Shown here: piece after piece, positions 185-49,967 of the stretch
Layout: each line of letters begins with the position of its first letter
Numbering within the stretch: the first letter of the stretch is position 1
Assembly: GCA_963710605.1 (NCBI GenBank)
Contig: CAVQBA010000007.1
Location: forward strand, 502,416-566,415
Length of the DNA stretch: 64,000 nt
DNA from: an uncultured cyanobacterium
GTDB taxonomy: Bacteria > Cyanobacteriota > Cyanobacteriia > Cyanobacteriales > Cyanobacteriaceae
Direction of reading: 5' to 3'
Program-made: the position numbers and the translations under genes
The notes under the pieces: model-generated
Databases searched by the model: none
What the model was told of the DNA's origin: nothing
The model's input: only the letters and a program-made list of their open reading frames with translations

Positions 185-520
185 TCATTATTTACTTTAC
201 TTCACTAATAAAATGTATCGCAGTAAACTATCTATGATCAAAAATCACTGCTAAGCTAACAAGAGTTAATAATCAGTAATTTAATGATTCCTCAAATTGA
301 TAGTGGATTGTTATTCAAATATTCTAGTTTGATGAGCGTAATTTTACTCTGGGAACTAAATTAAGATTAATAAATAAATAAAATAAGCAAAAATAAAATG
401 ATTTTGATAGTTAGTGAAAAATAAAATAAGATTCATCAATGTATGATCAAATTGCTAGAAACCTGCTAATGAAGCTATTAGTTATTTGCACAAGATAAAG
501 ATTAAATAAGATAAATAATT

Positions 521-3500
521 ATGACCACAGTGAGTACAAGTTATCAAGAAGAATTGAGTATTTATTCGAGTTCTGAGTTATTATTACGTCATCGATTAAA
601 ATTAGTTGAGAATTTATGGGTTTCAGTACTAAAAAATGAATGTGGACAAGAGCTAATTGATTTATTAGATAAACTAAAATCAGCTTGCTCTCCTGAAGGG
701 CAAACTACTGATATTGATCAAATTTCAGTTAGTAATTGGATTGAAAAATTAGAGTTAGATGAAGCGATACGGGCTGTTAGAGCATTTGCTTTATATTTTC
801 AACTAATTAATATTTTAGAACAACATTACGAACAAAGAACTCAAAAGCTGATTCGTCGTACTAGCACCGAAGCACAAGTAAATGCGATCGAAACTTCACC
901 ATCAAATTCGGCTCACGATAATGGTAAAGATAATAGTTATTTTAATCTGAAATCGACTCCTAGTGGAGGCGGTACATTTCATTGGCTTTTCCCTTATCTG
1001 AGAAATTTAAACGTACCACCTCAAAAAATACAACAATTAATTGCTCAACTAGATATTAACCTTGTTTTTACCGCTCACCCAACAGAAATTGTTCGTCACA
1101 CTATTCGTAAAAAACAACGTCGTATTGCTTCTATTTTAGAAAAACTCGATTTGGCTGAAGAGTCTAACCGTAATATGAGTTTGACTAATTCTTGGGAAGA
1201 AGAAAATTATCGCCAATTGTTACTCGAAGAAATTCGCTTATGGTGGCGTACTGATGAATTACATCAATTCAAACCAACTGTTTTAGATGAAGTTGATTAC
1301 GCTTTACATTATTTTCAAGAAGTCTTATTTGATATCTTACCAGAATTATCTAATCGTTTAAAACAAGCATTAAACATGACTTTTCCCGGTTTAAAACCAC
1401 CTGTGGAAAAATTCTGTTATTTCGGCTCTTGGGTAGGAGGCGATCGAGATGGAAACCCGTTTGTAACTCCAGAGGTTACTTGGTCAACGGCTTGTTATCA
1501 AAGAAATATAGTTTTAGAAAAATATATCGATTCAGTTCATCAACTTAATGATATTCTCAGTTTGTCATTACATTGGTGTAATGTAGAACCAGAATTATTA
1601 GATTCATTAGAACGCGATCGTATTGCGATGCCTGAAGTGTATGATCAGTTTTATGTCCGTTATCGTCAAGAGCCTTATCGTCTTAAACTAGCTTATATTG
1701 AAGAAAAACTAATTAATACTAAAGCTCGTAACCAAGCACTTTCTAATCCAGAAACCAGAAAATCAATCAAACTCGCTCAAAAAGCAGACAAAGTTTATCC
1801 TAGTAGTAACGACTTTTTACAAGACTTAAATCTAATTAAGGATAATCTGGAAAATACTAATATTCAGTGTCAAGAATTAGTCCGTCTAACTCGTCAATTA
1901 GATGTTTATGGTTTTCATCTTACCCCGCTTGATTTTCGTCAAGATTCTTCTCGTCATTCTGATGCCTTAAATGAAATTGCTGAATATTTAGGAGTACTAG
2001 ACAAACCTTATAATGAATTATCCGAAGACGAAAAAACCCAGTGGTTAATTAAAGAATTACAAACTCGTCGCCCTTTAATTCCGACAGAAGTAACTTTTTC
2101 TGACATTACGACAGAAACGATCGAGACATTTAAAGTACTTAGAGCATTACAATTAGAATTTAGCTTAGATATTTGTCAGACATATATCATCAGTATGACT
2201 AATTATGTCAGCGATGTCTTGGAAGTATTGTTACTAGCTAAAGAAGCAGGGTTATATGACCCCATCTTAGGTATGACAACCATTAGAATCGTACCTCTAT
2301 TTGAAACAGTAGAAGATTTAAAAAGAGCACCCTCAGTAATGACAGAATTATTTGAGTTACCGCTTTATCGTGCTTGTTTATCAGGTGGTTATCAAAACTT
2401 AGACAAATCAGCATCTTATCTCAACCTACCTGTATTAAAACCCTATGATTTACAAGAAATCATGTTAGGTTACTCAGATAGTAACAAAGACTCAGGTTTT
2501 GTTAGTAGTAACTGGGAAATACATAAAGCTCAGAAAAATCTGGCTAAAATCGGGACTAAATATGATCTTAATATCAAAATATTCCACGGTAGAGGTGGTT
2601 CAGTCGGTAGAGGAGGAGGCCCCGCTTATGCGGCTATTTTGGCTCAACCTAGCTCAACAATCAACGGTAGAATTAAGATTACTGAGCAAGGAGAAGTACT
2701 CGCTTCTAAATATTCTTTACCCGAATTAGCTTTATATAACTTAGAAACAATTACCACCGCTACAATACAAGCCAGTTTACTCGGTAGTGGTTTTGATGAT
2801 ATTGAGCCATGGAATCAGATTATGGAAGAAATATCAGCGGCTTCTCGTAAAACTTATCGTCAACTTATTTATGAGCAACCAGACTTTTTAGACTTTTTTA
2901 TGTCTGTGACTCCTGTAGAAGAAATCAGTAAGTTACAAATAAGTTCTCGTCCTGCTCGTCGTAGTTCGGGTAAAAAGGATATTTCATCTTTAAGAGCAAT
3001 TCCTTGGGTATTTAGTTGGACACAAAGCCGTTTTCTTCTCCCTGCTTGGTATGGTGTGGGTACTGCTTTACAAGACTTTTTAGATCAAGAGCCTGAAGAA
3101 AACCTTAAACTATTACGTTCGTTTTATATTCGTTGGCCGTTTTTCAAGATGGTAATTTCTAAAGTAGAGATGACTTTGTCTAAAGTAGATTTACAAATGG
3201 CGAGTCATTATATTGAGGAGTTGTCTGATGAGAAAGACAAAGAGCGTTTTTATGCTTTGTTTGAGCAAATTAAGAAGGAATATACTTTGAGTCGAGATGT
3301 TGTTTTGAAGATTAATGAACAAGAAAAATTACTTGATAATGATCCTGAACTGCAACGATCGGTACAATTAAGAAATGGAACGATCGTACCTTTAGGATTT
3401 TTACAAGTATCTTTAATTAAACGTCTAAGACAATACGCCAAACAAGACAGAGCGGGTTTAATCCATTTCCGTTATAGTAAAGAAGAATTGTTACGGGGTG

Positions 3501-6171: not shown

Positions 6172-6323
6172 ACTAGTTTGGGATACAAAAGCTTGGCAAG
6201 ATTACATTTATTGGCAAAGTCAAGACAAGAAAACTCTTAAAAGAATTAATCGACTAATCAAAGATAGTTTGGTTAATCCTTTTGATGGAATCGGAAAACC
6301 TGAGCCTTTGAAAGAAAATTTAT

Positions 6324-32311: not shown

Positions 32312-32943
32312 TTAGAAAAGAAGATCGATCGTTATTTCCGACTGTATTACTTTTTCAGGATCGTCATCCCATTTTCGGGGATTATTAATAATATATTGAC
32401 GAATATTATCTAATTGTTTTTGGTCACGAATAATTGATTCATAATAATTTTTTTGCCAAACACGAATATTGCGATCGACACAAATACTTTTAATTTGTCT
32501 GGTGACGGCAGACTTAAAACCCGAAACAAACGTCGAAAGCGATTTCGGTTTACGTTGCCAACCCGACTGTAGGGGTGCAAGCGGTCAGAACCCGCTCAGG
32601 AGCGTAAGACGCAAGGGAACGCTGACCAAGACAGGTTTGCACCCTGATTATCTTTATCCTGATGAAGATTTCCATTATTATCAATCACAACAATCCCATG
32701 AATATGATTAGGCATCACAACCCATTCGTCAAATTCAATTTCTTTTCTGATTTCACTTGAGTTTAACCATTCTTCCACAACCAAATTACCTATTTGATTA
32801 CGAATCATTTTTTCTTGAATAATTTCACCAAACAGACATTGTTTTTGGTAGGTACAAATAGTGACAAAATAATATCCAGACAGTGAATAATCATAGTTTG
32901 GTAAACGTATCGATCGACGATGATGATAATCTTGCAAATTCAT
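32312..32943 (-). pseudogene. REP-associated tyrosine transposase (RAYT/TnpA-REP, Y1 HUH), interrupted
   Basis: HHRRSIRLPNYDYS..YFVTICT and HUH motif MPNHIHGI. After the insert come RKPKSLSTFVSGFKSAVT, WQKNYYESIIR and IRQYIINNP (catalytic Tyr). Removing 53 nt gives a 192-aa ORF. Confidence 0.92.
32581..32632 (+). mobile_element. 52-nt structured mini-element inserted in a REP inside the RAYT gene
   Basis: GCGGTCAGAACCCGCTCAGGAGCGTAAGACGCAAGGGAACGCTGACCAAGAC splits GTAGGGGTGCAA / GGTTTGCACCCT. Two related copies lie at 48107-48209. Confidence 0.85.
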
Positions 32944-46896: not shown

Positions 46897-46948
46897 ACTC
46901 CTTACTCCTTACTTCTTACTTCTTACTCCTTACTTCTTACTCCTTACT
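46897..46948. repeat. Heptamer tandem repeat (ACTYCTT)n, about 7 units
   Basis: actccttactccttacttcttacttcttactccttacttcttactccttact. Confidence 0.85.
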
Positions 46949-47999: not shown

Positions 48000-48106
48000 A
48001 ATCTATATTTACTTCTATTTTATGATAATTATTTACTTACTAGTTTAGCGAGGACATGAAAAAAAGGACACTTGTGCAAAGGGCAAGAGTAAGTTGATAG
48101 TTGATA

Positions 48107-48209
48107 GCGGTGGAATCCCGCTCAGGAGCGTAAGACGCAAGCGGTCAGAACCCGCGACGACGGCAAGTCGCAAGGGAAGGCTGACCAAGACGGGAACGTC
48201 CACCAAGAC
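48107..48209 (+). mobile_element. Nested pair of mini-elements (outer 48107-48140+48192-48209; inner 48141-48191) inside a (GTTGATA)n repeat
   Basis: Removing the 51-nt inner copy leaves a 52-nt element colinear with 32581-32632. Removing that restores the heptamer tandem repeat exactly. Confidence 0.88.
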
Positions 48210-48348
48210 GTTGATAGTTGATAGTTGATAATGGCTTTGTTGACAATTAACAATATTTCTTACTCATTACTCATTACTCATTACTTGTTACTCGTTACTC
48301 ATTCCCTAACACCTAACTAATACCTTAAGAGTTTAAACCCTTAGTTTG

Positions 48349-49672: not shown

Positions 49673-49967
49673 AATGCAATTTTCTCCTTATTACTTAATT
49701 TTATTATTTTAATCTTATACTTATCTAATCTAACTCTATTTCAGCTTAATGTTATCTCTATCTATGGAGTGATTTTAGCCATTGACAATGAAAGAGTCAG
49801 ATTTTAGCTTTTAGCTTTTAGCTTTTAACTGTTAATTGTTAATTGTTCATTAATTTGCCTATTTTTATTACATTTTATTGATATGGGGAACAATTTTTCT
49901 AATTTTTAGTTGAATTTTAACTAACATAGATCTAGTAGGACTATCAATATAATCTATTAGGAGAAGT

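Follow-up and report, generated by a model that had tools for sequence, protein, structure and literature searches.

A family of small hairpin-forming repeats, probably mobile, nested in one another and in a heptamer array of a cyanobacterial genome

Introduction

Elhai et al. reportedly described in 2008 the small dispersed repeats SDR1-8 of Nostoc punctiforme and its relatives, with lengths of 21-27 nt. These SDRs are said, from the same work, to insert precisely into tandem heptamer repeats, other short repeats, HIP1 and one another. To our knowledge they have been reported only from Nostocaceae, and as far as we know the movement and nesting of cyanobacterial repeats of such non-coding size have gone unexplained since that description. 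Among larger elements, those of the IS200/IS605 group carry separate left and right subterminal hairpins and have a fixed 4-5-nt target on the 5' side.

SDRs are also discussed in citing papers (PMC5861425, PMC13756078, PMC4390886), where a length of 21 nt is given for SDR5. REP/REPIN sequences and the RAYT transposases are treated by Bertels and Rainey 2011 (PMC3116915) and Di Nocera et al. 2013 (PMC3733652); the relevant parts of these sources portray the repeats as short, extragenic and hairpin-forming, with compensating stem changes, and as targets for other mobile DNA, and they are thought to move as single-strand hairpins. A MITE of cyanobacteria, Nezha, is named in a passage of the latter source (PMC3733652).

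Here we describe a G+C-rich block that interrupts a heptamer array in a cyanobacterial genome. It probably represents a pair of mobile mini-elements, non-coding and hairpin-forming, which belong to a single family and of which one is nested in the other. Judged by description, the closest known kind are the small dispersed repeats of the Nostocaceae: both are very small, non-coding, dispersed cyanobacterial repeats to which no mobilizing mechanism has been assigned, and the element likewise inserts precisely into heptamer arrays and copies of itself. It is set apart from SDRs, again by description, by three covarying helices and a fixed self-nesting junction, and at 49-54 nt it is about twice as long as SDRs of 21-27 nt. 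It resembles REP/REPIN sequences in the traits named above, but it lacks the GTAG or CGTC tag (it starts with GCGG, its complement with GTCT) and is not arranged in inverted doublets; where GTAG is present it is carried by the host hairpin, so that the element inserts into GTAG-type REPs without being one. With IS200/IS605 elements it would share hairpin-dependent, strand-specific and precise insertion without target duplication, and Y1 genes are abundant in this genome, but a single hairpin spans the whole element and no fixed 5' target was found. Like MITEs such as Nezha, the element is non-autonomous, non-coding, dispersed and structured, whereas MITEs measure 70-300 bp and have terminal inverted repeats and target duplications, as opposed to 50 nt and no duplication here. 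A literature search that included element sequence strings found no description of the family, although sequences given only in figures or supplements would escape such a search. Cyanobacteria have a class of very small nested repeats, of which this family appears to be a previously undescribed member.

Results

Organization of the block

In the window, by which we mean the whole stretch of 64 kb that was analysed, the G+C-rich block of 103 nt occupies positions 48107-48209 and interrupts an AGTTGAT array, the phase of which is kept across the block (A|GTTGAT). Element B, 52 nt in total, is interrupted at GCAA|GGG by element C of 51 nt, and the two make up the whole block; the nest site for C lies directly 3' of position 48140. 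From 5' to 3', the anatomy of an element is GC, the 5' strand of a 6-bp stem P1, a small internal loop, the stem P2 (CCC/GGG), a variable apical hairpin P3 that opens and closes with GC, an AA bulge and, after the 3' strands, the tail AAGA(C). The base of P1 is conserved as GGT..ACC, and its three other pairs are variable and compensating. The features of the locus, and of a single copy (A) elsewhere in the window, are as follows.

48092-48106, + strand: host heptamer array (AGTTGAT) to the left of the block, comprising two units and an A
48107-48119, + strand: 5' arm of element B, GCGGTGGAATCCC, with GC, P1 5' strand GGTGGA, AT and P2 CCC
48120-48140, + strand: apical region of element B, a 17-nt 'sub-insert' GCTCAGGAGCGTAAGAC (see below) plus GCAA, equal to P3 type c plus the AA bulge
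48141-48191, + strand: full-length element C (51 nt), inserted in B, with 5' arm GCGGTCAGAACCC, P3 GCGACGACGGCAAGTCGC, AA and 3' arm GGGAAGGCTGACCAAGAC
48192-48209, + strand: 3' arm of element B, GGGAACGTCCACCAAGAC, with P2 GGG, AACG, P1 3' strand TCCACC and tail AAGAC
48210-48230, + strand: right part of the host AGTTGAT array, in the same phase as the left part
32581-32632, + strand: copy A, a single 52-nt element with P1 GGTCAG/CTGACC and P3 type c, located at GCAA|GG of a GTAG-tagged REP hairpin
32569-32644, + strand: REP hairpin hosting copy A, reading GTAGGGGTGCAA, element (+A), GGTTTGCACCC

The 17-nt centre of copy A is identical to that of B. A covariance model of the family (see below) detects C in the window with 67.9 bits (E 6e-17) and A with E 2e-13, without other matches; B is not matchable as one piece because it is split by C. 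The source genome (3.93 Mb, 33% G+C, 7 contigs) contains GCGATCG palindromes and many heptamer arrays, and in this respect resembles those of cyanobacteria. The bolA-grx spacers of a genome of the same genus (G001) and of G002 could not be aligned and contain no heptamer array.

Recurrence in the genome

A whole-genome scan for the arms revealed about 50 family loci, a few of the single-locus matches being noise or degenerate copies. With L for the 5' arm and R for the 3' arm, 29 loci have the form LR, 12 the form LLRR and one the form LLLRRR, while irregular loci with unequal numbers of L and R include three LRR and one each of LRRR, LLRRR, LLLRR and LLR. Parsing gave 55 units of 5' arm plus P3. 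In 37 of these the next feature is a 3' arm and in 18 a further 5' arm, in every case immediately after ..AA. The pattern GCAAGGGAANGNNNNCCAAGA has 36 matches in the genome as compared to none for the reversed control, and the 3' arm pattern has 56 matches as compared to one for its control. This recurrence is far beyond chance. Element length varies from 49 to 54 nt and is mostly 50; the canonical copy has 50 nt, B and A have 52 and C has 51.

With crude ORF calling, 42 of the 44 loci examined in this genome are intergenic. The element lies on the same strand as the gene on its 5' side in 23 cases and on the opposite strand in 21, which indicates that there is no orientation preference, and no usable GC skew was seen in this genome. 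The genome gave no evidence of a longer parent element sharing these ends, the only two matches being coincidences between neighbouring loci, and a plasmid collection gave no match to the element.

Fold of the element

The three-helix fold of P1, P2 and P3 is supported by covariation. When 30 single elements, taken from this genome and six relatives, are aligned, 97.4% of the cells are paired according to the three-helix model, as compared to 22-38% when the partners are slid. Nine of the 14 pairs change on both sides, with 4 of 4 for the inner pairs of P3, and the observed covariation score was reached by none of 500 shuffles. A second alignment of 45 distinct sequences, mostly from other genomes (about 20 further ones), is 98.7% paired, a value that is not independent of the model as these sequences were fitted to the covariance model built from the 30-element alignment. 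Single-strand folding of C and of the canonical 50-nt copy gives exactly P1-P2-P3.

P3 occurs as discrete types, namely type a of 15 nt (GCGTCGGCGnAAGAC), type b of 16 nt (GCGACGACnnnAAGTC) and type c of 17 nt (GCTCAGnnGCGnnAGAC). The type c centre, present in A and B, departs from the canonical P3 in that it forms a GCGT-AAG-ACGC hairpin of 4 bp, so the hairpin rule has exceptions.

The apical hairpin is not a separate unit

According to the original prediction, the element is a 35-nt core capped by a GNRA tetraloop, into which pieces of 16-17 nt are inserted as separate mobile units by the same mechanism that inserts the whole element. The strings on which this was based are all present in the sequence; C, for example, was divided into GCGGTCAGAACCC, GCGACGACGGCAAGTC, GCAA and GGGAAGGCTGACCAAGAC, and on paper the deletion of either bracketed piece indeed leaves CCC-GCAA-GGG. 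The centres are also interchangeable as was claimed, since discrete P3 types are common to different outer stems, with lengths of 15, 16, 17 and 19 nt. They start with GC and in this genome mostly end in AAGAC, AAGTC or CAGAC, as does the 3' end of the element itself, and three cases of a 49-nt element at the P3/AA junction (see below) demonstrate that other small elements insert here. Despite these points we regard the insertion of separate units as hardly tenable. The piece pairs across its supposed boundary: its first GC is the partner of the GC in GCAA, and covariation is seen in the inner pairs, so that the unit is a hairpin GC..GC followed by an AA bulge and not an insert plus a tetraloop. 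The pieces correspond to P3 minus its last two bases.

The pieces are moreover confined to the element. All exact or near-exact matches of the centre types in the own genome are located directly 3' of the CCC of a 5' arm (7/7, 9/9, 20/20 and 17/17), and the same holds for 12 of 12 matches of the patterned type c. The GCTGAC type follows the CCC of a 5' arm in 4 of 5 cases, the fifth being an unrelated short match, and CCCGCAAGGG occurs three times in the genome, twice in unrelated sequence and once out of register in a degenerate copy. The 16-mer (at most 1 mismatch) and the 17-mer (at most 2 mismatches) are absent from the 19 further genomes of the family save for one 2-mismatch match in G014. 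A second 2-mismatch match of the 17-mer is found at window position 6323 in an unrelated context, and both matches are at the level expected by chance; beyond such chance-level matches, the pieces were not found in unrelated contexts.

Searches for the bare 35-nt core in the genome, in species genomes and in metagenomes were likewise negative. The bare-core pattern gave 17 matches in 185,579 species genomes, none of them cyanobacterial and none (0/17) accompanied by a 5' arm, and the mirror pattern matched 22 contigs of a metagenome collection, none of which (0/22) has a matching 3' arm. When 5' and 3' arms at most 10 nt apart were sought, a single family member was recovered, a degenerate 34-nt copy without P3 at C1 222857. 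Neither GCAA nor the P2 strand GGG is present in this copy, which suggests an internal deletion; it nevertheless shows that forms without P3 can exist.

The proposed end rule GC...AAG[A/T]C holds for most centres in this genome (AAGAC, AAGTC, CAGAC) but breaks down in relatives. Hairpins at the P3 position of relatives include GCGCCTTTGTAAGGCGC, GCTGAGGTTCCCTCAGC, GCGGAGGTTTCCTCTGC, GCGCCGCCGAAAGGCGC and GCGGAATTTTTAATCCGC, none of which ends in AAG[A/T]C; P3 ends found there are AAGGC, CAGGC, TAGGC, CCTCA, CCTCT and AATCC. Because the ends differ in this way, the rule is local to the genome studied here. Of the four nested layers that had been proposed, the heptamer array, B and C stand, as insertions of whole elements, whereas the innermost layer is a variable tip hairpin, since the core was not found and the pieces do not leave the element. 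A mobile unit of 16-17 nt, which would have been the smallest known, is thus not upheld.

Shuffling of P3 types among stems

Comparison of outer stems and centres showed that the P3 types are shuffled among P1 types. Elements with a GGTGGA stem carry type a in 18 cases, type c in 5 and type b in one, those with a GGTCAG stem carry type b in 8 cases, type c in 5 and type a in 4, and among those with a GGTGAG stem there are five of type b, one of type a and one other. Because a tree-like history would not give such a matrix of stems and centres, we infer that recombination took place, most simply between nested copies. Nested copies have the direct repeats CCCGC, GCAAG and GGGAA in common, and nesting followed by deletion between short direct repeats of this kind could produce swapped centres or extra 3' arms. 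Loci of the forms LRR, LRRR, LLRRR and LLLRR are candidate intermediates of such recombination, and in G019 one locus (L077) combines a chimeric P3 with a pair of 3' arms.

Precise insertion and nesting

The GTAG hairpin GGGGTGCAAGGTTTGCACCC is present in the genome in 27 uninterrupted copies and 16 longer ones, and in at least 11 of these 16 the element is inserted precisely at GCAA|GG, in some cases together with an additional A. A second host hairpin (CCCCTCTCCTCGCAGGA|GAGGGG) exists in 11 empty and 6 filled copies. In both kinds of host, a filled version has nothing beyond the empty one except the element, or the element and a single A, which indicates that no target duplication is formed.

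Where an element is nested in another, the junction is always AA|GGG. The same architecture is found in ATCCAAA arrays of G019, a genome from another genus of the same family, in which the outer element is found unoccupied at one locus (L086) and, at four others (L074, L075, L082, L093), holds a nested copy at the identical junction. A different element of 49 nt is nested three times at the P3/AA junction, in one case carrying a further insert. Four-layer dolls thus do exist, and they are built of whole elements.

The 3' arm of the C lineage, GGGAAGGCTGACC, is internal in all 10 of its occurrences, and eight composites of the type B>C were found. In these, the B parts represent at least five haplotypes, differing at position 11 (G/T), in P3 (a-T, a-A or c) and at position 44 (T/C), and single B copies with these haplotypes are found in hosts of the same kinds. 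C may therefore have entered resident B copies repeatedly at one junction, which we favour because the B haplotypes differ and recur as single copies in the same host kinds. Alternatively, the composite was formed once and then spread as a unit of 101-103 nt to the eight loci. This would account for the constant pairing of an outer GGTGGA with an inner GGTCAG stem at eight loci in four kinds of hosts, and the composite of G019 (outer GGTCGG, inner GGTGGA) is similarly present at many loci with very similar sequence. The diversity of the B parts argues against a single origin, as does the C part, which is nearly constant among the composites, and we consider such spread possible but doubtful.

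Stem type and host are associated in this genome: GGTGGA stems are found in 9 of 9 ACTCCTT arrays and in 10 of 11 REPs, and GGTCAG stems in 5 of 6 CCCCTCTCC hairpins. A role of the variable P1 bases as a guide to the target was considered and is unlikely, as the paralogous loci L154 and L167 of G500 are distinguished by a compensated change in one P1 pair, and the copy in the window does not follow the association.

Distribution and genomic context

In a sample of the order, the covariance model detects the element in 39 of 151 genomes and in 22 of 81 genera, and nearly all of the matches listed are exactly 50 nt long. Counts per genome range from 0 to at least 39, the latter value applying to several genomes, among them G000, G488 and G500; no more than 39 candidates were scored in any genome, so that these values are lower bounds. 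In a phylum-wide sample of 401 genomes a strict pattern finds it in 7, and the 3' arm pattern, applied to 20 genomes of the family, gives 56, 38, 12 and 4 matches in four of them and 0-1 in the rest. The family is thus widespread in the order but patchy. In a family of large-genome cyanobacteria (f7), which we take from its genome size to be the heterocystous group, the element is found in 0 of 7 genomes with the covariance model and in 0 of 45 with the strict pattern. Its occurrence in many genera outside that family is a further difference from the SDRs.

In relatives, many copies are located inside dispensable genes, at A-rich, lysine-coding runs. The host genes are IS701-like (G002), IS630-like and others (G415, G500), IS1-like (G019) and of the addiction-module killer type (G132), where the IS630-like, IS1-like and addiction-module labels come from short translated motifs read by eye only. 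In the genome studied here, three tnpB copies carry the element as a 51-nt insertion before GYPQFSK. The insertion is in frame (17 codons) in both copies that were read around the element, whereas the third is frameshifted; only the copy at C6 584052 is part of a long called ORF (420 aa), and for the C1 copy the frame was read around the element only. The element behaves as selfish DNA that hitch-hikes on insertion sequences.

Removal of the insertion by translational bypass or in an intron-like manner was considered for these genes and rejected. In G002 the transposase genes that hold the element have internal deletions and an in-frame stop where the element ends, a frameshift is present in one tnpB copy, and the relation to the reading frame varies, the 51 nt being in frame in tnpB and out of frame in the IS630-like gene.

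The element could also be seen primarily as a functional structured RNA, such as a cis-acting stabilizer, a terminator or a small RNA module, that is kept by selection on the host. The strong covariation, with conserved junctions and variable helices, is in line with this, as are the intergenic position of 42 of 44 loci and the mismatches on the strand shown, which in the 45-sequence alignment (fitted to the model) comprise 12 wobble cells as compared to 8 others. It is difficult to reconcile with a functional RNA, however, that the element shows no orientation preference (23 versus 21), that copies lie within coding genes of insertion sequences and in a toxin-type gene, some with frameshifts or stops, that copies nest in one another and in REP hairpins, that counts are patchy between related genomes, and that no Rfam covariance model matches the element at E values up to 10. 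We therefore consider a host-selected RNA very improbable and retain a mobile mini-element as the preferred explanation.

Discussion

The element may be moved in trans, as a folded single strand, by an enzyme that recognizes hairpins. HUH/Y1-type enzymes act on hairpins and make no duplications. We tentatively name an HUH/Y1-type transposase or a REP-associated relative as the most likely mover, an assignment that is itself uncertain and for which the reasons are the lack of a target duplication, the conserved base and flanks of the hairpin, and 12 Y1_Tnp matches in this genome. Against this assignment, 17 of 20 genomes of the family contain Y1 transposase genes, and the number of Y1 matches shows no relation to that of the element: 10 matches coexist with a single element in one genome, and 8 matches with none in another. 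That no parent element was found in this genome (see above) also counts against it. With regard to RAYT genes, weak Y1_Tnp matches in open frames of 186-190 aa are present in this genome, and likewise in element-free relatives.

A conserved target tetranucleotide was not found among the 5' flanks, which show a preference for purines and are mostly A-rich (GCAA, AAAA, AGGA), with others reading AATT, CCTT, GATA and GTAA; in relatives they are A-rich runs. At the 3' junction, AAGA is followed by C, A, G, T, CA or GA. Such variation of 1-3 nt is untidy for precise HUH cleavage and counts against the HUH assignment. It would be in line with the spread of the same mobile family by an RNA copy and reverse transcription, or by template switching of a polymerase at hairpins. 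The 5' flank ends in A at 20 of 20 G500 loci sampled, seven of which are copies of one larger repeat, and the weak wobble excess on one strand also points in this direction. Against copying of this kind stand the lack of a target duplication and of an A-tail on the element, and the exact insertion at GCAA|GG in many independent REPs, and we regard it as improbable.

A more far-reaching proposal can be made. The element may represent a so far undescribed class of self-nesting 'nano-transposon', widespread in non-heterocystous cyanobacteria, in which the fold is the substrate of a dedicated enzyme and AA|GGG is the target of the same enzyme. The conserved substrate would then comprise the GC-P1 base, CCC/GGG, GC..GC-AA and the AAGA tail, and the chemistry of the enzyme, not general recombination, would account for nesting and even for P3 cassette exchange. 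This proposal is speculative, and we regard it as improbable.

The main interest of the family lies in its use as a tractable case for finding the enzyme behind very small nested repeats. It offers a better handle than repeats of 21-27 nt because its fold is supported by covariation, conserved and free positions are clearly distinguished, the self-nesting junction is exact, and empty and filled versions of the same host hairpins are present in one genome. With 39 of 151 genomes positive and between 0 and at least 39 copies per genome, its distribution is patchy, which makes it feasible to search for an enzyme that co-varies with the element. For genome annotation, the element explains G+C-rich blocks of 50-100 nt in AT-rich spacers, and in transposase, tnpB and toxin-type genes it accounts for breaks or for insertions of 17 codons.

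Hairpin and heptamer repeats as hosts

Two hairpin repeats of the genome containing the window serve as hosts of the 50-nt element, a hairpin-forming mobile mini-element.

Window 32569-32644, and 43 sites genome-wide: GTAG-tagged REP-type hairpin GTAGGGGTGCAAGGTTTGCACCC
Genome, 17 sites, e.g. C4:140082 and C6:261883: second hairpin repeat CCCCTCTCCTCGCAGGAGAGGGGTTGGGGGTGAGG

The REP-type hairpin is uninterrupted in 27 copies and longer in 16, its GCAA|GG being a preferred target of the element, and the second hairpin is empty at 11 of the 17 sites and filled at six. The filled copies of the latter hold mainly elements of the GGTCAG type (variants are named by the P1 5' strand), whereas those of the GGTGGA type are almost the only ones found in the ACTCCTT arrays and the REP-type hairpin.

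Window 46897-46948, 48260-48303 and 49802-49851: further heptamer arrays (ACTCCTT, TTACTCA, TTTTAGC, TTAATTG)

No element has inserted into these arrays, which lie in the same neighbourhood of the window; hosts of this kind are occupied elsewhere in the genome, and the arrays illustrate the empty state.

Nested element and variant arms

C7:410131, C4:1172089 and C1:220680, all (-), outside the window: different 49-nt element, TTCTTGAAAAAGTTGTTCATGGGGG..CCCCCAAGACCACACTTTTCC
C4:1143820 (-), C1:252203 (+), C6:367973 (-) and C6:823387 (-): variant 3' arms in tandem

The 49-nt element, which likewise has a stem followed by AAGAC, occurs just three times in the genome, always nested in the 50-nt element at the junction between the apical hairpin P3 and the AA bulge; in one copy its GGGGG/CCCCC stem holds a further insert. 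Separately, a variant 3' arm of 19 nt, ACCGAANG....CCAAGAC, is repeated in tandem over short stretches that lack the corresponding 5' arms.

Insertions within genes

C6:583081-584343, C1 ~7210 and C6 ~941888, all (-), outside the window: tnpB (IS605 OrfB-type) with element variant
L008 (relative G002, C1) 1129-2172 and 2150-3021, also loci L001, L013 and L017-L029: IS701-like transposase genes with element
Relative G132, L006 (C44) 469-518 (-): element interrupting a gene read by eye as addiction-module killer-type

All three tnpB copies contain the variant GCGGATGCGA.CCC...CCAAGCG as a 51-nt insertion at ...KDIKGKK | element variant | GYPQFSK. It is in frame (17 codons) in the two copies for which the sequence around the element was read, of which only that at C6 584052 is part of a long ORF call (420 aa); one A is missing from the third copy, which is frameshifted. 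L008 and the loci listed with it harbor about 12 copies of an IS701-like transposase gene of ca. 1 kb, with internal deletions and belonging to two diverged subfamilies, and all of them carry the element, in frame and with a TAA at its end, at the identical site (IIDETGDRKK | element | GNTTDYISRQY); both subfamilies keep the remaining frame open. The G132 insertion (..LLLVGGSKK | element | TQKKDIKTARRLWKAY) is 51 nt long and contains an in-frame TGA.
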